A stretch of 64,000 bases of DNA, taken from Escherichia coli (GTDB taxonomy: Bacteria > Pseudomonadota > Gammaproteobacteria > Enterobacterales > Enterobacteriaceae). The position numbers and the translations under genes are program-made. Position 1 is the stretch's first letter; each line of letters starts with the position of its first letter. This document shows positions 1,204 through 47,631 of this stretch, piece by piece. A model generated the notes under the pieces. The model searched no databases and was not told where the DNA came from. It saw only the letters and a list, made by a program, of their open reading frames with translations. The stretch lies in NCBI RefSeq assembly GCF_003018235.1, contig NZ_CP027437.1; one strand, 5' to 3'.

Positions 1204-3126
1204 ATGACCGTGTATTCAGCGGGAGGTCCGCGCATGCCTGAGCCGGAAGAAGAACAGGCATTCACTGAAGAGGTGAACAGCGCCTTTTCCGGGCTGCCTC
1301 GTTTTGTGTCTGTAAAGCTGGGGCGCAGGATCAGCAGCGCATGGCAGACAAAGGGTTTTGCCGGTGCACGGGAAAAATTTGCGCTGATGGTTCAGAAGGA
1401 TTTGCCGTTCATTACCGGGGTGAATAAACGTTATGCCATTAATCCGGATGAATTACCGGGGTGGCTGTTTGGTGGGCTGGCATCTGATCAGGCATACGGT
1501 GCGGTTCATTCCATGACCTGGCGATTTAATGCCATGGTGGATGGTGACGACGGGGATGCGCATTTACTGGCTCAGGATCTGTCCGTGTTTCTTATTGCTG
1601 AAATGCAGCACCTGAGTGTTCTTCTTGCGGATGAAGATGCGGATGCGGCGGCAGATGCCATTTATGCCATGGTTGCCGGGCTTGTTGAGCATTTCCGGAT
1701 GGAGCCACCGGACTGGAAGCGTTTTATTGGCAGAAAGCTGACACTGGAGCAACTGACTGTTGCCATCAGCCGGATGCTGAGTGTTCGCTGGTGGCAGGGA
1801 AAACTCAGGGCATTCTCCCGTCGCTGGCGTGAACATCTGCTTATAGCTATGGGTGTCGTTCGTCGGCAGTCTTCACCGCACTGCAGTTATGAATGGGTGC
1901 AGAGGTGGCTGGCGGGGCGTAAGCACGGTCGAAGGCTGATGGCGGAAACGGACGTTGAGGATGAAGAAACAGGAGAAAGATTTTCACTTCTCGATTTGGT
2001 TGACAGCAGCATTTCAGATGCGGAGAAACGCCGCGCAGAGCTGATGACCAGGGTTAAGGGGCTGGAAGATTTAGCCCGTTTTGAAGGTGTGGCGCAGGAG
2101 CAGGGGTATATCGGGCTTTTTTTCACGATGACCGCGCCATCAAAATATCATGCCTGGCTGGAGACAGGATATCGCAATCGTCGTTATAACGGCGCAAGCC
2201 CGAAAGACACACAAAATTATTTCTCCGGACTCTGGCGTCAGATCAGTGCAACGCTGAGGCGCAGGGGGATCGGGATTTTTGGATTAAGAAGTGCCGAACC
2301 GCATCATGACGGAACGCCGCACTGGCATGGTGTTCTCTATGTGCATCAGGAGCATGCTGCCGCCTTACAGGACATTCTTGAGTATTACGCCAACCGCGAT
2401 GATGACGCGGGAAAAACGCCCATCCGCAAAGCAGGAAGAAAATCCCACCTGGAAATAAAACCGGTTCTTGATGATCTGGGGAGTGCCTCTGCCTATATCG
2501 CCAAGCATATTGGAATGAATCTTGACGGTTGTGCGCCAGGCGGAATGAATCATGAAACGGGCCATACACTGGTGGTCACTGCCCGCCACGCCTCGGCGTG
2601 GGCGTCATTATGGGGGATCAAGCAGTTTCAGTTTATAGGCAGCACACCGGTAAGTGTATGGCGTGAGCTGCGTCGCTTTAACAATCAGGCTCATGCTGAC
2701 CGGATAAGCCCGGCGCTGGGTGAGTTACACCGTGCAGCCAGTGAGGGTGACTGGAAAACCTATACCAGGCTGCAGGGTGGACCGTTTGTGGCACGAAGAG
2801 ATCTGGTCCTTCGCACATGGTATCAGCGTTCGGAGGAGCCGGATGAGTGTGGGCTACACACCAGTGCGATCAAAGGTGTTTATATGCCGGGGCGTGATAC
2901 GCCACCGGTAGTGACGCGTTCACGTAACTGGAGGATCACCCGGAACGTTACAACAGGCGCTCTCAATGTTAACCGGGGGTCTGCTTTAACGCCCTGGACT
3001 TGTGTCAATAACTGCATTTCGGGCAGAAAACGACCAGATGGTCATCCTCCGGATCCAGGTATAAGGATCCCTGTTCAACTGGAACTGAACTTCGGGGAAG
3101 AGAATAAAGGGAAAAGTGAGCAGTAA
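1204..3126 (+). CDS. phage replication initiation endonuclease, HUH rolling-circle type (P2/186 gpA-like)
   Basis: 640-aa ORF with GGGAGGA RBS; HUH motif set FFTMTAP, PHWHGVLYV and YIAKHIG in canonical order. Confidence 0.7.
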   Translation: MTVYSAGGPRMPEPEEEQAFTEEVNSAFSGLPRFVSVKLGRRISSAWQTKGFAGAREKFALMVQKDLPFITGVNKRYAINPDELPGWLFGGLASDQAYGAVHSMTWRFNAMVDGDDGDAHLLAQDLSVFLIAEMQHLSVLLADEDADAAADAIYAMVAGLVEHFRMEPPDWKRFIGRKLTLEQLTVAISRMLSVRWWQGKLRAFSRRWREHLLIAMGVVRRQSSPHCSYEWVQRWLAGRKHGRRLMAETDVEDEETGERFSLLDLVDSSISDAEKRRAELMTRVKGLEDLARFEGVAQEQGYIGLFFTMTAPSKYHAWLETGYRNRRYNGASPKDTQNYFSGLWRQISATLRRRGIGIFGLRSAEPHHDGTPHWHGVLYVHQEHAAALQDILEYYANRDDDAGKTPIRKAGRKSHLEIKPVLDDLGSASAYIAKHIGMNLDGCAPGGMNHETGHTLVVTARHASAWASLWGIKQFQFIGSTPVSVWRELRRFNNQAHADRISPALGELHRAASEGDWKTYTRLQGGPFVARRDLVLRTWYQRSEEPDECGLHTSAIKGVYMPGRDTPPVVTRSRNWRITRNVTTGALNVNRGSALTPWTCVNNCISGRKRPDGHPPDPGIRIPVQLELNFGEENKGKSEQ

Positions 3127-7457: not shown

Positions 7458-7534
7458 GCGCCGTTAGCTCAGCTGGACAGAGCAATTGCCTTCTAAGCAA
7501 TCGGTCACTGGTTCGAATCCAGTATGGCGCACCA
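7458..7534 (+). tRNA. tRNA-Arg (anticodon TCT, reads AGA)
   Basis: Cloverleaf folded by hand: 7-bp acceptor stem, perfect 5-bp anticodon stem ATTGC/GCAAT, loop CTTCTAA, T-loop TTCGAAT, encoded CCA. Confidence 0.85.
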
Positions 7535-7535
7535 T

Positions 7536-7610
7536 GCGGTCATCGTATAATGGCTATTACCTCGGCCTTCCAGGCTGATGATGCGGGTTCGATTCCAGCT
7601 GGCCGCTCCA
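7536..7610 (+). tRNA. tRNA-Gly (anticodon TCC), glyT-like with one T-stem mismatch
   Basis: 75 nt, near-identical to E. coli glyT recalled from memory; anticodon loop CTTCCAG; acceptor stem with one G-U; T-stem GCGGG/CCAGC has a G-A mismatch. Confidence 0.7.
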
Positions 7611-7630
7611 TAGAGGATTATGGGGACTGT

Positions 7631-7768
7631 ATGTTGAGTATTTTTCTGCGTTACCTTTCATCGGTAAAAATAAACACACAACAACTATTTATGCTGGCAT
7701 TAGCAATGATAGTTATTGGTTTTCTCGGAACTTGTTTATTTATTTACTATATTTTTGTCGATAATTAA
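7631..7768 (+). CDS. small hydrophobic peptide ORF (45 aa, MLSIFLRYLSSVKINTQQLFMLALAMIVIGFLGTCLFIYYIFVDN)
   Basis: ATG ORF in AT-rich spacer after tRNAs; one predicted TM helix; weak RBS. Confidence 0.25.
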   Translation: MLSIFLRYLSSVKINTQQLFMLALAMIVIGFLGTCLFIYYIFVDN

Positions 7769-7939
7769 TATTTTTAGTATTTAGCCAGAGTGGCCCAAAC
7801 AGAAAATAAAGTTACTGTGAAACAGGGGGGCCTAATAAAAATAATCACCACTAAATTCGGGGCTTTAAAAATGCTAAGAACATCACATTTCATTATGCCG
7901 GGTACTGGAGAATAACATGATGTTTTGTTAAAAATGATT

Positions 7940-7979
7940 TTGCATGGTGAATCCCCCTGTGCGGCGGGGCATAATGACA
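7940..7979 (+). repeat. about 40-bp conserved motif, copy 2
   Basis: See copy 1; a partial inverted copy (GGTCATTGCAG...CACCATGCAG) lies at about 8021-8064. Confidence 0.5.
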
Positions 7980-8321
7980 GATGTTTGGTTGCGTATTGTA
8001 TAGGCAAGTTGCGGATTCTGTCTGGTCATTGCAGAATTCACCGGGAGGCACCCGGCACCATGCAGATAATTGTTTTGTGGATGATAATACCAGCCCCTCT
8101 CCGGAGGGGCTTTCTTATGGGCGAAAAAAAGCCCGGGGAGCCGGGCAATAGCATGAGATATACGTTTTTATAGACGTACAGATTTTAATCAGAATTTATG
8201 GGGCTGCGCAACTGCGTGGCCTTTTTTGTTTTGTGGGCTAAGGTTTTCCCCTTTGATTCGCCATGTGGCTGAACCTGTAGCCCGCCACTGTTCAGACGCA
8301 ATCCCGGCAAGGGGAGGAATA

Positions 8322-10349
8322 ATGGCATTTAAACACTACGATCTGGTCTCTGCCAGCAGCGGTGATGAACTGCAAAAGAAACTGACAGAAAAAATAAATG
8401 AAGGGTGGCAGCCATACGGTTCGCCGCTTGTTTCGTATGACGATAACGGGATGAAAATTATTCAGGCCATTGCAGCAGAGGGTGATGTCAGGATCCCGGT
8501 TGAAACGCCTGATGATGGTGGTGATTCACCGGTCACAATGACCTCCGGTGCACCTGATTATTATTATGTTGTTGTGCTTGCCGGACAGTCCAACGGCATG
8601 GCCTACGGTGAGGGGCTTCCGTTACCGGACTCTTATGACCGCCCGGACCCGCGCATTAAACAGCTGGCACGCCGCAGTACAGTGACGCCGGGTGGGGACG
8701 CCTGTGCATACAATGATGTGATTCCGGCTGACCATTGTCTGCATGATGTACAGGATATGAGCGGTGTTAATCATCCGAAAGCGGACCTGAATAAGGGGCA
8801 GTATGGCTGTGTCAGTCAGGGGCTGCATATTGCCAAAAAACTGCTGTCGTATATCCCGCAGAATGCAGGGATACTTCTGGTGCCCTGCTGCCGTGGTGGT
8901 TCTGCATTCACCACCGGGGCTGACGGCACATTCAGTGAGGTCACCGGCGCATCCGCTGACGCTGCACGCTGGGGTGCCGGTAAACCCCTGTATCAGGACA
9001 TGGTCAGCCGGACAAAAGCGGCGCTGGCCAAGAACCCGAAAAACAGGCTGCTGGCGGTGGTATGGATGCAGGGCGAGGCAGACCTTGCGTCAGGCAGTCA
9101 GCAGCATAACGGGTTATTCACGGCCATGGTTCAGCAGTTCCGGACTGACCTGTCCTCACTTGCTGCGCAGTGCGTGAGTGGCAATGCTGCCACGGTGCCG
9201 TGGATTTGTGGTGATACCACGTATTACTGGAAGGCCACTTATGGCACACAGTATGAAGCCATTTATGGAGCCTATAAGAATCTGTCCGCACAGAATATTT
9301 TCTTTGTACCGTTCCTGACAGATGAAAACGGCGCAAACACGCCAACGAACCAGCCAGCGGAAGACCCGGATATTGTGGCTGTGGGGTATTACGGTGCGGC
9401 ATCACGAACACAGGCGAACTGGACGACAGCGCAACGTGACAGCCATTTCAGCACCTGGGCGCGTCGCGGCATCATTTCTGACCGCCTTGCGTCAGCTATT
9501 CTGGTGCACGCGGGACGTACGTCAGGTTTCATTACCGGTGAAGTTTCTTCTCCGGACACTGCATCCGGTGACGGTGGTTCGTCCACTGATGCGGGTACGG
9601 ATGCGGGGACCGGCACTTCCGGAACAGGAAGTGATGACGCTACCGGAACGACACCAGCCACCGCTGCCATTATTCTGAGTGCAGACGGAGGGGATGTTTC
9701 GGCACAGGGCTGGACGGTGGAAGGCACCACGGTGACCACCACGGCAAACACGGTGACTTCATCGGGTGAGGCGCTGGCGCAGAATGTGCTGAGTGTTCCG
9801 AAACAGAGCGGGGCAGCATGGAAGCTTGTTCATACCACCACAGATGAGCCAGCGGAACTGCTGAACAATGGCGGTGAGTTCCTGTGTCGTTTCCGTATCA
9901 CGGATACTGCCATTGCTGAGGGGCGTTATGCCTTTGGTCTTTACTGGCTTCCGGACGCACAGAAGATACCAGCCGGTGCGACATTCAATAAAACAGGAAG
10001 CGGGATGTCCCCGTCCATGCTCAACTTCTATGTCCAGACGGATGGCAGCAACATAAACCTGTTATCACACTGCAGTACGAAGAGTGCAGGGAATCTGAAG
10101 ATTGGCTCATTCGGTGCATTTAACAATGAATGGCATACCTTCCGTCTTCGCTACCATGGTGGCAATACGGCAAGAGCAACGGTGACGCTGGACAGTCAGG
10201 TGGTGGGAGATATAACGCTGTTATGTGCGCCGTCAGCGGCCAGTGCCGGTGACACTCTGTCGATGATAAGTATCACATCGGGTGATACATACAGTATTGA
10301 AGTGGAAAGCCTGAGTGTGACGGTGAACGGGGCTGCGGCAGCGGCGTGA
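8322..10349 (+). CDS. prophage sialate O-acetylesterase-like protein (NanS-p-like) with long C-terminal Thr/Gly-rich domain
   Basis: GGGGAGGAATA RBS then ATG; SASA-type catalytic motif VLAGQSNGMAYGEG; N-terminal region resembling DUF1737; position equivalent to the esterase gene downstream of stx in Stx phages. Confidence 0.6.
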   Translation: MAFKHYDLVSASSGDELQKKLTEKINEGWQPYGSPLVSYDDNGMKIIQAIAAEGDVRIPVETPDDGGDSPVTMTSGAPDYYYVVVLAGQSNGMAYGEGLPLPDSYDRPDPRIKQLARRSTVTPGGDACAYNDVIPADHCLHDVQDMSGVNHPKADLNKGQYGCVSQGLHIAKKLLSYIPQNAGILLVPCCRGGSAFTTGADGTFSEVTGASADAARWGAGKPLYQDMVSRTKAALAKNPKNRLLAVVWMQGEADLASGSQQHNGLFTAMVQQFRTDLSSLAAQCVSGNAATVPWICGDTTYYWKATYGTQYEAIYGAYKNLSAQNIFFVPFLTDENGANTPTNQPAEDPDIVAVGYYGAASRTQANWTTAQRDSHFSTWARRGIISDRLASAILVHAGRTSGFITGEVSSPDTASGDGGSSTDAGTDAGTGTSGTGSDDATGTTPATAAIILSADGGDVSAQGWTVEGTTVTTTANTVTSSGEALAQNVLSVPKQSGAAWKLVHTTTDEPAELLNNGGEFLCRFRITDTAIAEGRYAFGLYWLPDAQKIPAGATFNKTGSGMSPSMLNFYVQTDGSNINLLSHCSTKSAGNLKIGSFGAFNNEWHTFRLRYHGGNTARATVTLDSQVVGDITLLCAPSAASAGDTLSMISITSGDTYSIEVESLSVTVNGAAAAA

Positions 10350-28373: not shown

Positions 28374-28618
28374 GAATAAAAAAATACCCACAGTGTTGGC
28401 CAGGCTGTGGGGAATACGATGAAAAACCATGTGAAGGAGTTATTTTTATGTACGGTGAAACTGTAACGCTGTGCAATTATCAGCGCCACAGGTATTTTGC
28501 AGAAATGTGAAGAAATTCAGAATTTTTATTCAGTCAGTCAACAGACAGGCACCCCACGGGGTGCCTGTTGTTTTTGGGTATAAACAGATTCAGGCATCAG
28601 GCTGGACAGGGGGACAGA

Positions 28619-31600
28619 GTGGGTAAAGGTGGTGGTAAGGCGCACACGCCGGTTGAGGCGAAAGATAACCTGAAATCCACGCAGATGATGAGCGTGATTG
28701 ACGCGATTGGCGAAGGCCCGGTGGAAGGTCCGGTTAACGGTCTGCAGAGTATTCTGGTGAACAAAACCCCGCTGACGGACACGGACGGCAATCCCGTGAT
28801 ACACGGTGTGACAGCCGTCTGGCGTGCCGGGGAGCAGGAGCAGACACCGCCGGAAGGCTTTGAGTCCTCCGGGGCGGAAACCGCGCTGGGTGTGGAAGTC
28901 ACGAAGGCAAAGCCGGTGACGCGCACCATCACATCAGCGAACATTGACCGTCTGCGGGTGACCTTCGGGGTGCAGTCACTGGTGGAGACCACCTCACAGG
29001 GTGACCGTAATCCTTCTTCAGTCCGCCTGCTGATTCAGGTGCAGCGTAACGGCAACTGGGTGACGGAGAAGGATATCACCATTAACGGCAAGACCACCTC
29101 GCAGTACCTGGCGTCGGTGATAATCGGTAACCTGCCTCCCCGCCCCTTTAACATCCGGATGGTCAGGGAAACGGCGGACAGCACCACGGACCAGCTGCAG
29201 AACAGGACGCTGTGGTCGTCATACACCGAAATCATCGATGTGAAACAGGGTTACCCGAACACGGCCATTGTGGGGCTGCAGGTGGATGCGGAGCAGTTCG
29301 GCGGCCAGCAGATGACGGTGAACTACCATATCCGCGGTCGCATCATCCAGGTGCCGTCAAACTATGACCCGGAAAAACGCACATACAGCGGTATCTGGGA
29401 CGGGAGTCTCAAACCGGCATACAGCAACAACCCGGCCTGGTGCCTGTGGGACATGCTGACGCACCCGCGCTACGGGATGGGAAAACGCCTGGGGGCAGCG
29501 GATGTGGACAAGTGGGCACTGTATGCCATCGGACAGTACTGTGACCAGCGTGTTCCGGACGGCTTCGGAGGGACAGAGCCGCGGATGACGTTTAATGCGT
29601 ACCTGTCACAGCAGCGTAAGGCGTGGGACGTTCTCAGTGATTTCTGCTCGGCAATGCGCTGTATGCCGGTATGGAACGGCCAGACGCTGACGTTCGTTCA
29701 GGACCGCCCGTCGGATGTGGTGTGGCCGTACACCAACAGCGATGTGGTGGCGGATGATAACGGCGTGGGGTTCCGCTACAGCTTCAGCGCCCTGAAGGAC
29801 CGGCACACGGCGGTGGAGGTGAACTGGACCGACCCGCAGAACGGCTGGCAGACCTCCACAGAGCTGGTTGAGGACCCGGAAGCGATACTGCGCTACGGGC
29901 GCAATCTGCTGAAGATGGATGCGTTCGGCTGTACCAGCCGCGGTCAGGCCCACCGTGCCGGACTGTGGGTGATAAAGACCGAACTGCTGGAAACACAGAC
30001 GGTGGATTTCACACTCGGGTCACAGGGGCTGCGCCACACGCCGGGTGACATCATTGAAATCTGTGATAACGACTATGCCGGGACCATGACCGGCGGGCGC
30101 ATTCTGTCCGTTGACGCTGGCAGCCGGACCCTGACGCTGGACCGTGAGGTGACGCTTCCGGAAACCGGCACATCCACGGTGAACCTGATTAACGGCAGCG
30201 GTAAGCCGGTAAGTGTGGACATCACCGCACAACCGGCCCCTGACCGGATACAGGTCAGCGCCCTGCCAGATGGCGTGGAGACATACGGTGTGTGGGGACT
30301 GAAAATACCCGGTCTTCGCCGTCGCCTGTTCCGCTGTGTGTCCATCCGGGAAAACACGGACGGCACCTTTGCCATCACGGCGGTGCAGCATGTGCCGGAG
30401 AAGGAAGCCATTGTGGATAACGGGGCCACCTTTGAGCCGCTGTCCGGTTCGCTGAACAGTGTCACACCTCCTGCCGTGCAGCACCTCACGGTGGCGGTGA
30501 GTGCGTCTGACGGCCAGTATCTGGCGCAGGCGAAATGGGACACGCCACGGGTGGTGAAGGGCGTGCGCTTCAGTCTTCGCCTGACCAGCGGAAGCGGAGA
30601 AGACAGCCGTCTGGTGACCACTGCCATCACCGCAGACACGGAGCACCGTTTCAGTGGCCTGCCGCTCGGGGAATACACCCTGACCGTGAGAGCGATAAAC
30701 AGTTACGGCCAGCAGGGGGAGCCTGCCGGTACCACGTTCCGGATTGACGCCCCGGCAGCGCCTGTAACCATTGAACTGATACCGGGATATTTTCAGATAA
30801 CGGCGGTCCCGAAACTGGCCATTTATGACCCGACGGTGCAGTTTGAGTTCTGGCTCTCGGAAAAGCAGATTGCGGATGTTCGTCAGGTTGAAACCACCGC
30901 CCGTTATCTTGGTACGGCGCTGTACTGGAGTACCGCCAGTAATATCAGGCCGGGGTATGATTATTATTTTTATATCCGCAGCGTCAACCTGGTGGGCAAA
31001 TCGGCATTCGTGGAGGCCGTCGGCCGGGCCAGCGATGATGCGGAAGGTTACCTGGATTTTTACAAAGGGCTGATTAATAAAACACATCTCGGTAAAGAGC
31101 TGCTGGAAAACGCTGAACTGACGGAGGATAACGCCAGTAAGCTGGAGCAGTTCTCGAAAGAGTGGAAGGACGCGAACGATAAATGGAATGCCATGTGGGG
31201 CGTCAGAATTGAGCAGACCGAAGACGGTAAGCATTATGTTGCCGGGCTTGGTCTCAGCATGGAGGATACGGAAGAAGGCAAGCTGAGCCAGTTTCTGGTT
31301 GCCGCCAGCCGTATTGCGTTTATTGACCCGGCAAACGGGAATGAAACGCCGATGTTTGTGGCGCAGGACGGGCAGATATTCATGAACGACGTGTTCCTGA
31401 AACGCCTGACGGCTCCCACCATTACCAGCGGCGGAAATCCACCGGTATTTTCCCTGACACCGGACGGAAAGCTGACTGCCAGAAATGCGGATATCAGCGG
31501 CAGTATCACCGCCAGTTCGGGTACGCTCAACAATGTGACGATAAACCAGGACTGTGTGATTAAGGGCAATTTATCCGCGGCACAGATAACCGGAGATATT

Positions 31601-31915
31601 GCGAAGACGTATGTGCTTAACGGGAACAGTGTGTATATCCCTGCTCAGGTATTTACCATGAATCTGGTGATGCTGGGCGGTGCCGGACACCTGTACTTTA
31701 ACGGTAACGAGCAGACACCGGTTTCCTCTGCGATCCTTTCGAGGATGCAGACAGACAGTGTCTGGAGCGGCGGAAGTCCGGGGCATGGTGGCGGCAGTTA
31801 CAGACCTGTTTACAGCACAATCTGGATCAAGGTGTTCAGGCTTAATGCGGGGACACCCGTGACGGTGTCGGTTTCAGACAATGCCGTGACGGTTATCTGG
31901 ATGTCGAAGGCGTAA
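28619..31915 (+). CDS. central tail fibre / host specificity protein J with divergent C-terminal receptor-binding region
   Basis: GTG start giving [11 protein letters not shown]; near-colinear to lambda J for about 980 aa; last about 110 aa unrelated to lambda J. Confidence 0.9.
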
Positions 31916-32001
31916 ATTTGTTAACTCGTTGAAATATTTATAACCCCGGTACGGGCACCAGAAATGGTGCCTTTTTTATTGCAGAAAAGCGAGAGGTCAT
32001 T

Positions 32002-32601
32002 ATGCGTAAATTATGTGCAGTTATTTTGTCTGCAGCTGTCTGGCTGGTTGCTGCTGTTGTGCCAGCGGGTGCCGCAGAGTATCAGTCCACACTGAGTGCC
32101 GGATATCTTCATGCCCGTTCCGGGATGTCCGGCAGTGATGATTCAGCCGGATTCAATGTGAAATACCGTTATGAATTAACGGACACACTGGGGATGGTGA
32201 CGTCATTCAGCTATGCAGGAGACAGGAATTGCCAGCTGACCCGTTACAGCGATACCCGCTGGCATGAGGATTCCGTGCGTAACCGCTGGTTCAGCGTGAT
32301 GGCGGGGCCGTCTGTGCGCGTGAATGAATGGTTCAGCGCGTATGCGATGGCGGGTGTTGCTTACAGCCGTGTGTCGACCTTCTCCGGGGATTATCTTCGC
32401 GTGACTGACAACAAGGGAAAAACGCACGATGTGCTGACCGGAAGTGATGACGGTCGCCACAGCAACACGTCACCGGCGTGGGGGGCTGGCGTGCAGTTTA
32501 ACCCGACCGAATCCGTGGCCATTGATATTGCTTATGAAGGCTCCGGCAGTGGTGACTGGCGCACTGACGGTTTCATTGTGGGTGTCGGTTATAAATTCTG
32601 A
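32002..32601 (+). CDS. lom: Lom-like outer membrane protein (Ail/Lom/PagC family)
   Basis: Signal peptide and beta-barrel pattern; position after J as in lambda. Confidence 0.8.
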   Translation: MRKLCAVILSAAVWLVAAVVPAGAAEYQSTLSAGYLHARSGMSGSDDSAGFNVKYRYELTDTLGMVTSFSYAGDRNCQLTRYSDTRWHEDSVRNRWFSVMAGPSVRVNEWFSAYAMAGVAYSRVSTFSGDYLRVTDNKGKTHDVLTGSDDGRHSNTSPAWGAGVQFNPTESVAIDIAYEGSGSGDWRTDGFIVGVGYKF

Positions 32602-32665
32602 TTAGCCAGGTGACACAGTGTTATGACAGCCCGCCGGTTCAGGCGGGCTTTTTTGTGGGGGGAAT

Positions 32666-33859
32666 ATGCCAGTACAGATTTCAGGTGTGCTGAAGGATGG
32701 TACAGGAAAACCGGTACCGGAGTGCACCATAGAGCTGAAAGCCGTGAGAACCAGTGAGACGGTGGTGGTCACCACGGTGGCGGAGTGTCAGCCGGGGGAA
32801 ACAGGCAGTTACAGCATGCAGGTTGAGCCGGGGCGTTATCGTGTGACCCTGTGCGTGGAAGGTCGCCAGCCAGCATATGCCGGAGAGATTGATGTCATGG
32901 CAGACGACAAACCGGGTACCCTGAATGCCTTTCTGCTCCGTGAAACGGATGCTGCGTATTACCCTGATGCACTGAAGAAACTGGAAGCGGCGGCGGATGA
33001 GGCTGTGCGCAGGGCGCGGGAAGCTGCTGAGAAAGCGGAAACTGCCGTGGGGCCACAGGGGCCAAAGGGAGATAAAGGCGAGAAGGGGGAGCAGGGGCCA
33101 AAGGGTGATAAGGGAGACACCGGTGCACAGGGGCCGAAGGGAGAAACCGGCGCTAAGGGTGACAAAGGTGATACAGGCCCCGCAGGTCCGAAAGGTGAGC
33201 GGGGCGACCCTGGCGGCCCACAGGGGCCAAAAGGGGATACGGGAGCCGCAGGTCCGGCAGGCCCACAGGGGCCGAAAGGGGATACCGGAGCCACAGGCCC
33301 GGCAGGCCCACAGGGACCAAAAGGAGATACCGGAGCCGCAGGTCCGGCAGGCCCACAGGGACCGAAAGGAGATACAGGAGCCACCGGTCCGGCAGGCCCA
33401 CAGGGACCGAAAGGAGATACGGGGGCCGCAGGCCCGGCAGGCCCACCGGGACCGAAAGGAGATACCGGAGCCACTGGTCCGGCAGGCCCACTGGGACCGA
33501 AAGGGGATACGGGAGCCACCGGTCCGGCAGGTCCGCAGGGGCCGAAAGGCGATACCGGAGCCACCGGTCCGGCAGGTCCGCAGGGTCCGGCGGGAAGTTC
33601 TGACAGCGGGTTGTTTGGCGTCGGTTCTTTTGTTCTTGCAGCGTATTACCCGACGAGTTACTCGGGGGACATGCCACCGGGCACAACTGTTGCCGGGTCA
33701 TCACTGTCTGCATGCTGCCTTTCGAATGGTACTCCCCTGATTGCGTCCGGTAATGTGGGGGAAACCCGTTTACCGGGGACGTGGCGTGCATGTGGTCCGT
33801 TAATATGGACATCTGCTGCGGGTATCAGACAGGCAGGATTATTTCAGCGCATATCATGA
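32666..33859 (+). CDS. side tail fibre protein (Stf-like) with collagen-like Gly-X-Y repeats
   Basis: N-terminus [17 protein letters not shown] matches lambda Stf N-terminus; about 160 aa of GPKGDTGA-type triplets. Confidence 0.75.
33040..33600 (+). repeat. tandem 45-bp (15-aa [15 protein letters not shown]) collagen-like repeats inside stf
   Basis: Repeated nucleotide unit read directly; generates spurious ORFs on both strands. Confidence 0.7.
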
Positions 33860-33869
33860 GGAGGTCAGG

Positions 33870-34475
33870 GTGGATAAGGGAAAAGAGATTCTTGCAGTAC
33901 GAAATGCCGGTTACAACGAATACGGCGGTATAAACTGTGAGGTGCAGTTTGAAGGCGCGGTGAATGAAAAAGGTGAAGCGTTATGGCTGCCATATACGGC
34001 AACGGAAACGGATAATACTGAACACGGAAAAGCATTATGGTCTGGTCTGACAGCAGGAAAGTACGGAGATGTGACCGCCTTTGCTGCCACGGAAGCTGTT
34101 CTTGAGGCGGCAAAATCGGTGAAAAGGGAGGAGATTAATCTCTGGCGGGACGTGCAGGAAAATATGGAATACGTGATGGAATTCAACGGAAGAAAATGGG
34201 ATTACGGCAAGAAGACATTGTCCAGGATAAGCACGACGCGCCTGATGGCGGAAAAAAACAGTCTTCCGGAAGGATTTGCGTGGACGGATGGTGAAAATAA
34301 TGTGGTGCCGGTGACGGCGGCGGAAGTTATCGCGCTGTCGGATGCGATAGAGAAGGCGATGTTTGCGAAGGGGGTGGAGATTAACACCAGACAGTTGCAG
34401 ATGAAAGCAGAGGTTGAGGCGCTGACAGAGCTGAAGTCCATCAGAAGTTATGTTGTTGGCTGGCCTGCCAGTTGA
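33870..34475 (+). CDS. hypothetical protein in tail-fibre-assembly position, not lambda Tfa-like
   Basis: GAGGAGG RBS then GTG; 201 aa; no similarity to lambda Tfa recalled. Confidence 0.4.
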   Translation: MDKGKEILAVRNAGYNEYGGINCEVQFEGAVNEKGEALWLPYTATETDNTEHGKALWSGLTAGKYGDVTAFAATEAVLEAAKSVKREEINLWRDVQENMEYVMEFNGRKWDYGKKTLSRISTTRLMAEKNSLPEGFAWTDGENNVVPVTAAEVIALSDAIEKAMFAKGVEINTRQLQMKAEVEALTELKSIRSYVVGWPAS

Positions 34476-35135
34476 ATAAAAAAAGCGGGGCCACCCCCGG
34501 GCCCCGACATAACGAAGTATCAGATGTTTATAATTATTAGCTTACTAACTGTGCCATATCAGAATACTGCAGGAAGTGATGTTGTTATCATTTTTGCAAG
34601 CAGGGCGTTTCTGGAGGGAATCGATTGGTGATGGAGTGTGCAATGATGAAGGGAATAAGCCTCTGCAAAACAAAAAAAGACTTTAACAAAATCAAGCTCG
34701 CTTAGTGGCGCATCTGCCCGTATCCGCACCAGTCGTCCGGAAAATGATTCAAACACCGGGCGGCAAAAGTATTACCAGTGTAGCAACCTGGAATGCGGCG
34801 TATGCTTCTCAACTCTGGCAGCTTTCCATAAATTCACATCGAAACACGCTTCCGGCGTTCACTCTTCAGAAGGTATCCCGTGGCATGAACTGCCAGCTTC
34901 ACACTGGTGAAACAATCAGATGACTTTTCCTTTACCTCAAATTAACAGGCAGAATTGCCGGAGTAACAAAAAAACGATAGATTACGCGCGGGTGCCTTTC
35001 GGCTGATGGTCGGAGGGAATACCCGAAGGCCAGATGTGGAAAGGCCCCGGAAAACACTTTTGTTTAACCGAGGCCCTAACCGTCTACCCTAAGCAAGTGA
35101 TAGGTTAGCGCCTCCCCGAAAAAGGAGCAAGCGCT

Positions 35136-35276
35136 ATGTCGCAAAAATCGCTGATCGCCATCACGCTCTGCGTGACAGCAACCCTCATCATCTGGATATT
35201 GCACGGTTCGCTGTGTGAGATACGGATGAGTTTCTGGGGAGCGGAGTTTGCGGCGTTCTTACAGTGTAAGCAGTAA
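35136..35276 (+). CDS. Hok/Gef-family type I toxin (46 aa)
   Basis: AAGGAG RBS; TM helix then SLCEIR...EFAAFLQCK matching Hok signature SLCEIRYRDGHREVAAF (from memory); structured flanking RNA. Confidence 0.6.
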   Translation: MSQKSLIAITLCVTATLIIWILHGSLCEIRMSFWGAEFAAFLQCKQ

Positions 35277-35417
35277 GGAGACCGCGACGGGGGAGTAATC
35301 CCCCGTCAATCGGTTGTCAGGGTAAGGTCGAAGTGGCACCCAAATTTAAATAGAGGCCCACCAGTAAGAGTAAGAGCGGTGGGCTTAGCACTTGTTTAAA
35401 TTTGAAAGGAATTCTTT

Positions 35418-35714
35418 ATGAGTGAAATGGTATTTTGTCGCGGCTGCGGCAAGGAAATACATAAAAATGCCATATCTTGCCCCAATTGTGGAGCACCTCA
35501 AAGAACAGCAAGTTCAAAAAGCAGGATTACAGCTGCACTACTGGCTTTCTTTTTTGGTGGTCTCGGTGCACACAAATTTTATTTAGGTAAAGTGGGACAA
35601 GGATTTCTTTATCTTATTTTTTGCTGGACATTCATTCCGGCAATCGTGGCTTTTATTGAGTTTATTATCTATCTATGCACCTCAGATGAAGATTTCGCCC
35701 GCAAATATGGCTGA
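35418..35714 (+). CDS. zinc-ribbon plus TM2-domain membrane protein (98 aa)
   Basis: CRGCG...CPNCG zinc ribbon; TM2-like motif FFFGGLGAHKFYLG and two TM helices. Confidence 0.6.
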   Translation: MSEMVFCRGCGKEIHKNAISCPNCGAPQRTASSKSRITAALLAFFFGGLGAHKFYLGKVGQGFLYLIFCWTFIPAIVAFIEFIIYLCTSDEDFARKYG

Positions 35715-42297: not shown

Positions 42298-43839
<1,542 letters not shown>

Positions 43840-43924
43840 CCTTAAAGAACTGTGCTTTGCAGTGCTCACACAGATTGTCTGATGAAAAGTGAAAAGCAAG
43901 GCGTCTTGCGAAGCAGACTGATAC

Positions 43925-44000
43925 GTCCCCTTCGTCTAGAGGCCCAGGACACCGCCCTTTCACGGCGGTAACAGGGGTTCGAATCCCCTAGGGGACGCCA
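43925..44000 (+). tRNA. gltW: tRNA-Glu (anticodon TTC) in 16S-23S spacer
   Basis: Exact E. coli tRNA-Glu sequence GTCCCCTTCGTCTAGAGGCCCAGGACACCGCCCTTTCACGGCGGTAACAGGGGTTCGAATCCCCTAGGGGACGCCA. Confidence 0.98.
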
Positions 44001-44203
44001 CTTGCTGGTTTGTGAGTGAAAGTCACCTGCCTTAATATCTCAAAACTCATCTTCGGGTGACGTTTGAGATATTTGCTCTTTAAAAATCTGGATCAAGCTG
44101 AAAATTGAAACACTGAACAACGAAAGTTGTTCGTGAGTCTCTCAAATTTTCGCAACACGATGATGAATCGAAAGAAACATCTTCGGGTTGTGAGGTTAAG
44201 CGA

Positions 44204-47097
<2,894 letters not shown>

Positions 47098-47189
47098 ACA
47101 ACGCCGAAGCTGTTTTGGCGGATGAGAGAAGATTTTCAGCCTGATACAGATTAAATCAGAACGCAGAAGCGGTCTGATGAAACAGAATT

Positions 47190-47309
47190 TGCCTGGCGGC
47201 CTTAGCGCGGTGGTCCCACCTGACCCCATGCCGAACTCAGAAGTGAAACGCCGTAGCGCCGATGGTAGTGTGGGGTCTCCCCATGCGAGAGTAGGGAACT
47301 GCCAGGCAT
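47190..47309 (+). rRNA. rrfG: 5S ribosomal RNA
   Basis: 120 nt TGCCTGGCGGC...GCCAGGCAT. Confidence 0.97.
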
Positions 47310-47323
47310 CAAATTAAGCAGAA

Positions 47324-47350
47324 GGCCATCCTGACGGATGGCTTTTTTGC
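47324..47350 (+). terminator. rRNA operon terminator
   Basis: GGCCATC-CTGACG-GATGGCC hairpin plus TTTTT. Confidence 0.75.
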
Positions 47351-47631
47351 ATTGGCGCAGAAAAAATGCCGGATGCGACGCTGGCGCGTCTTATACTCCC
47401 ACATAAGCTAGATTCAGCAGCGAATACGGCTTCCCAAACTTGCCCACCTCCATACGTGTCCTCCTTACCAGAAATTTATCCTTAAGCTCCTCAATAACCA
47501 TTTTCCTGCTAACTAAATTCATGGTTAAGGTTGCATAATGATGCGCAACAAATGTATAACATTTTCTTTACCAAAAAAATAAACAACAGCGACCGACAAA
47601 AGCATCGGATTACGGCAGGAGATATAATGGC

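Follow-up and report, generated by a model that had tools for sequence, protein, structure and literature searches.

Collagen-like proteins encoded by prophages of Escherichia coli were defined by Ghosh et al (2012; PMC3368898) as EPclA to EPclD, and experiments on EPclA revealed a trimer, shaped like a hinged dumbbell, whose collagen triple helix is thermally stable. A second point of reference is the side tail fibre (Stf) of Ur-lambda, whose collar sets 12 copies in a ring around the gpV/gpM junction and there holds four trimeric fibres (PMC12617516). Here, we analyse a side tail fibre gene with a 45-base-pair (bp) tandem repeat in a 64,000-nucleotide (nt) stretch of the E. coli contig NZ_CP027437.1 (assembly GCF_003018235.1), referred to below as the window. 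The gene (32666..33859, + strand) was recognized from its open reading frame (ORF) and its PF08400 and PF01391 matches; its product of 397 amino acids (aa) is exactly WP_106906725.1, a protein present in the public collection. Our analysis indicates that the repeat very probably specifies a collagen-like triple-helical shaft, part of a trimeric side tail fibre that belongs to a lambda-like prophage. Domain order, triplet anatomy, unit structure, between-strain variation and the boundaries of an exchangeable cassette were read directly from the sequence, and the molecular roles proposed below are modelled on described relatives.

The fibre begins with a collar domain (PfN, or phage_tail_N; 32666..33046, + strand). 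Residues 1-127 match PF08400, the prophage tail fibre N-terminal family, with 142.1 bits against a threshold of 26.6, and residues 1-91 match chain 9e7m_Ta of the Ur-lambda Stf collar (PDB 9E7M/9MGH) with E=2.3e-27. The last ~35 residues of this region form a short linker rich in Ala, Glu and Lys instead of the 116-aa PCoil domain. The fibre is encoded behind J and lom, where the tail operon ends; stf has this position in lambda. Domain match, structural match and gene position together bear out the preliminary description, which had called the protein a side tail fibre. By analogy with Ur-lambda, the N-terminal domain would dock the fibre at the junction of tail tube and tip. The collagen part is recognized by PF01391 in four stretches, with 96.1 bits against a threshold of 27.2.

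The collagen region extends over nt 33050-33601 and contains two uninterrupted Gly-X-Y runs, aa 129-185 and aa 187-312; read in register, these become runs of 18 and 42 triplets split by one extra Gly. A collagen-like tandem repeat had been reported at this place with about 35 triplets. Position and character were right, but the count was too low: the region holds about 61 triplets, of which 18 are proximal, 40 lie in eight units and two to three trail behind them. The proximal collagen consists of 18 mixed Gly-X-Y triplets (aa 129-182; 33050..33211, + strand), with weak periods only according to Tandem Repeats Finder (TRF). It is followed by the extra Gly codon (aa 183; 33212..33214, + strand), which breaks the register within the sequence G-D-P-G-G-P-Q-G (GDP-G-GPQ), and then by eight tandem 45-bp units (aa 184-303; 33215..33574, + strand; delimited by TRF and a table of the units), each reading GP(Q/P/L)GPKGDTGA(A/T)GPA. 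A trailing partial unit, GPQ-GPA-GSS (33575..33601, + strand), closes the collagen. All six related alleles that were compared from complete genomes contain the additional Gly, which is missing from some shorter database alleles; it probably acts as a hinge. Calculated at 0.286 nm per residue, the standard rise, the shaft would be about 52 nm long, divided into about 15 nm proximal and about 36 nm distal to the break, and each unit accounts for about 4.3 nm.

Tandem Repeats Finder reports the array at 33215-33589, with a period of 45, 8.3 copies, 89% matches and a score of 540. The description of the whole region as near-identical 45-bp units holds for these distal two thirds; it fails for the proximal part (33050-33214), where TRF detects a weaker periodicity of 9/18/27/36 bp. 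Identity at a lag of 45 was 0.894 in the array and 0.549±0.025 (maximum 0.636) in 2000 control shuffles, in which codons were permuted within the G, X and Y classes to retain the collagen periodicity, so the 45-bp unit stands far above what plain collagen repetition produces. A degenerate pattern of the unit matched 10 times in the window, always within 33050-33555, with 0 matches expected. No two of the eight units are the same: their pairwise identity is 36-42/45, and exact internal repeats reach 35 bp at most. Nine of the 11 variable columns fall at codon position 3, so selection acts on the peptide repeat, and the DNA beneath it drifts. The array has a G+C content of 71%, compared with 53% for the window. 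Position X of the triplets is occupied by Pro (53%), Asp or Glu (30%) and Ala (17%), and position Y by Lys or Arg (30%), Thr (27%), Ala (22%) and Gln (17%). The commonest triplets are GPK, GDT, GPA and GPQ, and the motifs KGD and KGE occur 13 and 4 times, respectively. Spurious ORFs on both strands, which had also been foreseen, run across the array: 201 aa on the - strand (32959..33564), 219 aa on the - strand (33153..33812) and 247 aa in another + frame (32997..33740). All three appear in the ORF list and are unannotated in RefSeq homologues.

The C-terminal tip comprises 87 aa (33602..33859, + strand, including the stop codon) and forms an all-beta domain. Its AlphaFold model has six strands and a predicted local distance difference test (pLDDT) score of 77, and Foldseek aligns it with the C-terminal ends of numerous models of phage tail fibres (E~1e-4). 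A Pfam search with the tip gave no family match even at E<=10, and phmmer against 1.84 billion representative proteins recovered only six relatives. At the sequence level, the tip family is narrow. Of 5426 complete E. coli genomes, 32 contain tip DNA, among them strain 55989 and the O104:H4 outbreak lineage. We considered whether the tip could be a PfC domain (PF06820) and rejected this: there was no match at E<=10 and no BLASTP similarity, whereas the control, the ArgO145 fibre of a Shiga toxin (Stx) phage, scored 122 bits. By comparison with relatives, the tip is the likely receptor-binding and trimer-nucleating end of the fibre.

Eleven nt past the fibre stop codon begins a gene for a 201-aa DUF4376 protein (33870..34475, + strand), which has a GTG start codon preceded by GGAGG and matches PF14301 with 55.7 bits against a threshold of 25. 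This is the only family that the protein matches at E<=0.01, and no Tfa-type assembly protein was found downstream of the fibre. The protein belongs to phrog_1141, a family of the category 'tail', and its gene is retained beside fibres with differing tips. DUF4376 proteins are tail-fibre chaperones in the Alteromonas phages V22 and A5, and we consider a fibre chaperone role probable here as well. A sequence search of the PDB with the DUF4376 protein returned nothing below E=0.9. In E. coli 55989, the annotated DUF4376 coding sequence overlaps the 3' end of the fibre gene by 55 nt. The 90%-identity protein cluster that holds the window fibre also includes DUF4376 proteins of 177-201 aa; this mixture has the look of an artefact of clustering, for which a fused or read-through ORF may have been the bridge.

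Within the EPcl family, the window fibre is assigned by sequence to the EPclC class, as a form without PCoil, because it shares 87% identity in the tip with EC55989_1078 of E. coli 55989 (467 aa), a protein listed as EPclC* (PMC3368898). PCoil is frequently missing from this class. The two proteins share PfN, a collagen built of GP(Q/P)-GPK-G(D/E), a non-PfC C-terminus and the gene order J, lom, fibre and DUF4376 gene. They differ in that EC55989_1078 carries a 116-aa PCoil between PfN and a collagen of ~140 aa, whereas the window fibre lacks PCoil and has 184 aa of collagen with a Gly interruption. Membership in EPclA or EPclB was rejected: these proteins share PfN and the collagen composition with the window fibre but differ by PCoil and PfC, and in the window fibre the collagen starts at aa 129 directly after PF08400, PCoil (about 110 aa) is absent and there is no PF06820. 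The X/Y composition is close to that tabulated for EPcl proteins by Ghosh et al (PMC3368898), and the EPcl-type Gly interruption (aa 180-187) and triplet pattern are present; the characterization as a collagen-like stalk was thus well founded. The fibres of Stx phages are also related, with ~88% nt identity to parts of the window array.

More distant relatives share single parts of this architecture. The Ur-lambda (9E7M/9MGH; PMC12617516) and Gifsy-1 (PMC12312913) Stf proteins have the collar domain and the place after J and lom in common with the window fibre, and presumably also the role in first, reversible adsorption. The lambda Stf shaft, however, is a coiled coil with a gp37-like distal part assembled by Tfa, whereas the window fibre combines a collagen shaft, a small beta tip and a DUF4376 partner. 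Gifsy-1 Stf was considered as a collagen-type relative with a known receptor and rejected, as it is of the Ur-lambda type and PMC12312913 does not mention collagen. In the Alteromonas phages V22 (gp26/gp27) and A5 (gp8/gp9), the fibre gene is immediately followed by one for a DUF4376 protein, as it is here, but hosts and fibres are unrelated and the V22 and A5 fibres have no collagen shaft. For the antireceptor of Streptococcus thermophilus phages, collagen-like repeats are described beside VR2, a host-range region (Duplessis & Moineau, 2001, as cited in PMC5601072). In that secondary account the repeats part the modules of a receptor-binding protein and border its variable, host-determining region, as in our case; the antireceptor differs by its Gram-positive hosts, other flanking domains and a lack of homology outside Gly-X-Y.

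The preliminary description had proposed that the repeats are prone to expansion and contraction, and comparison with related prophages corroborates this. Orthologues of the gene in complete genomes have 5, 7, 7, 8, 8 and at least 9 units; their lengths differ by multiples of 45 bp only, and the frame is always kept. Database proteins that share the tip are 237-397 aa long, with 21-181 aa of collagen, and include alleles with two, three and six units as well as in-frame deletions in the proximal collagen, so that unit number ranges from 2 to at least 9. Over all database proteins with 2-9 units, the collagen measures 21-199 aa. The prophage at raiA in CFIAFB20140388 is 99.26% identical to the window prophage over 18 kb. 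All 16 differences between the two fibre genes lie within 33271-33385, inside the array, and outside the array the distal half of J contains the sole prophage differences. In terms of unit variants, the window array reads a-b-c-d-e-f-g-h and that of CFIAFB20140388 a-d-i-j-e-f-g-h, and variants reappear at other positions in other alleles. This pattern is better explained by units being exchanged or converted than by point mutations at scattered positions. Partners for such exchange are plentiful, since collagen-repeat DNA like that of the array occurs in 757 of 5426 genomes, at a median of 8 places per genome. The strain of NZ_CP076709.1 carries two modules of J, lom, fibre and DUF4376 gene, one at tRNA-Ser/hya and one at raiA, both with eight units and equal in length; because the two arrays share some unit variants, they form an obvious pair for exchange between prophages.

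The tip itself is also variable. Among fibres with other tips, DNA homology runs through lom, PfN and the collagen, is lost at the tip and returns at 33856-34600, in the DUF4376 gene, with 77-86% identity. The other tips that share the collagen DNA and the DUF4376 gene include one of ~150 aa and one of ~75 aa, and they keep a shared scaffold made up of invariant Gly, Gly-x-Trp and Leu-Phe-x-Arg. A fibre with a Peptidase_S74 tip, an intramolecular chaperone, is instead followed by a Gp38_N gene, so that tip type and partner gene appear to co-vary in the sequences compared. As homology stops at the tip after the collagen, the array also marks the left edge of the exchangeable tip. We tentatively put forward, as a possibility that we rate below even, that the array and the DUF4376 gene serve as two homology arms of a cassette for tip exchange between co-resident prophages, and that unit number (2 to at least 9, about 9-39 nm) is tuned to the thickness of the host surface polysaccharide. 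If so, the repeat would be a device for host-range evolvability and not a passive spacer.

Taken together, these features suggest how a fibre of this kind could be built and used. A lambda-Stf-type collar would dock the chain on the tail, with four trimeric fibres per tail as in the homologous Ur-lambda structure. Along the chain, the collar would be followed by the short helical linker, 18 triplets, the register-break hinge, the eight 15-residue units with about three further triplets, and finally the beta tip. The tip would bind the receptor and, together with the DUF4376 protein, could set the three chains in register, after which the triple helix would close like a zip, starting at the C-terminal end. 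As DNA, the 45-bp units behave as a recombining tandem array in which unit number changes in exact, in-frame steps and variants are shuffled between alleles, and the array and the downstream chaperone gene bracket the exchangeable tip. That unit number tunes the reach of the fibre through the O-antigen layer is speculative.

Several points weigh against a functional collagen shaft shaped by recombination. Trimer formation, the triple helix, the presence of the protein in the virion, its receptor and the role of the chaperone are all carried over from relatives. As a tblastn search with the tip found no match among 50,697 phage records, infectious phages with exactly this fibre are undocumented. 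The model of the DUF4376 protein gives generic helical-hairpin matches only, none of them to the intramolecular-chaperone fold, like that in T5 and K1F fibres, reported for the Alteromonas proteins. Errors of polishing in one of the two assemblies may account for part of the clustered differences in the array, and the very short alleles come from short contigs of draft assemblies and might be collapsed.

The absence of the tip from isolated phages would also fit a different reading, which we consider unlikely, namely that the gene is a relic of a defective prophage whose array changes neutrally and without function. The Prokaryotic Genome Annotation Pipeline (PGAP) calls J incomplete in close relatives, and lambdoid prophages of the type found in enterohaemorrhagic E. 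coli (EHEC) are often defective, according to Asadulghani et al. as summarized in a citing paper. However, the fibre ORF is intact, the differences between units are nearly all synonymous and every length change is in frame. The host element, a lambda-like siphovirus prophage beside raiA in E. coli, carries lambda-type terminase, portal, protease-capsid and tape-measure genes, L and tail genes in order in the left half of the window. J, the central tail fibre or tip attachment protein (28568..31915, + strand; Pfam J domains), is one continuous ORF in the window.

A bacterial surface adhesin carried by the prophage as cargo, comparable with Scl1 and Scl2 of streptococci or Lcl of Legionella, is very unlikely. 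Such adhesins, like BclA, share with the window fibre a Gly-X-Y shaft without hydroxyproline, and the repeat number of bacterial collagen-like adhesins varies between strains. The best NCBIfam matches of the window fibre are indeed the models for Lcl, SclB and SclA, and the neighbouring lom is a cargo gene between terminators. Membership in these families was rejected, with scores far below the cut-offs (153.5 vs 500, 123.1 vs 325 and 112.4 vs 400) and with the collagen part alone aligned. Moreover, the N-terminus is the Stf collar domain without a signal peptide, there is no LPXTG or other anchor, and the collagen is flanked by phage tail domains; the gene itself occupies the stf position, with a gene of a fibre-chaperone family next to it.

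We give equally little credence to the idea that the array is a programmed contingency locus that frequently switches fibre length within one lineage. Tandem 45-bp units with exact stretches of up to 35 bp, and unit numbers that differ between strains, speak for it. However, the variation seen all lies between different strains, none of it inside a single strain, the neighbourhood contains neither a dedicated recombinase nor an inversion site, and the divergence of ~10% between units implies far less slippage than perfect repeats would undergo. The least credible alternative is that the eight-unit array is an assembly artefact, collapsed or expanded, and that the true gene length differs: the array is where numerous 'partial' database entries for collagen-like or tail proteins break off, at 175-207 aa, and some very short full-length alleles stem from short contigs, but all eight units are distinct and their longest exact repeat is short enough for ordinary reads to order them, the frame is unbroken, a 5.01-Mb contig is recorded as encoding exactly this protein, and an independent complete genome holds the two eight-unit copies of identical length described above, which together make a collapse improbable. 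The shaft of a side tail fibre stays our preferred interpretation of the repeat.

The surroundings of the fibre gene follow the lambda plan, with the local order J, lom, fibre and DUF4376 gene. The lom gene (Ail/Lom outer-membrane protein; 32002..32601, + strand; PF06316, 373 bits) has terminator-like hairpins on either side (31953-31972 and 32628-32649, from a terminator scan), a layout typical for an inserted cargo gene; the second hairpin stops 16 nt before the start codon of the fibre. The distal part of J (29900-31915) has 41 mismatches to the 99.3%-identical prophage of CFIAFB20140388. PGAP flags J in close relatives as 'incomplete, missing C-terminus', whereas J in the window is a single continuous ORF. 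Its C-terminus lacks PF12421 (Ig_GpJ_C), a domain present in J of the relatives L008 and L010, which suggests a replaced receptor-binding end.

The chromosome flanking the prophage (raiA, bamD, rluD and clpB) is that of E. coli, and CFIAFB20140388 and SCU-111 have a matching prophage end at the identical insertion site. The interval from the prophage end to raiA (34700-35714) contains genes for an ogr/Delta-like zinc finger, a hok/gef toxin and a TM2-domain protein (35418-35714); the names of the first two come from the annotated relative in NZ_CP076709.1 (L005). The ogr/Delta-like gene near raiA suggests that a remnant of an older P2-like element may persist at this site. Farther downstream of clpB, a ribosomal RNA operon (42300-47600; 16S and 23S positions transferred from the same relative) with tRNA-Glu at 43925-44000 has the layout of the E. 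coli reference.

Elsewhere in the prophage, the replication gene (1204-3126) is of the P2 gpA type (PF05840) and lies among lambda-like morphogenesis genes, so the prophage genome is a mosaic. Within 7458-10349, a gene for a 707-aa protein resembling NanS-p, with the domains DUF1737, SASA (sialate O-acetylesterase) and DUF6645, comes after phage-borne tRNA-Arg(tct) and tRNA-Gly(tcc). The position between these tRNAs and the NanS-p-like gene is the one where Stx phages carry stx; in the window only ~600 bp separate them, too short for stxAB.

The feature is already known, as a member of a family described in 2012 that is routinely annotated by PGAP, and its interest is practical rather than conceptual. 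The array breaks draft assemblies and leaves many database entries truncated inside it, and it creates three long false ORFs that gene callers should ignore. The repeat both sets the physical length of the fibre and feeds recombination, a principle already established for the EPcl family as well as other receptor-binding proteins of phages. The array also makes otherwise near-identical prophages vary in fibre length and tip identity, which matters for tracing the relatedness of prophages and for host-range prediction in lambdoid phages, among them the phages of enteroaggregative E. coli (EAEC)/O104:H4-type strains, which have the same tip.
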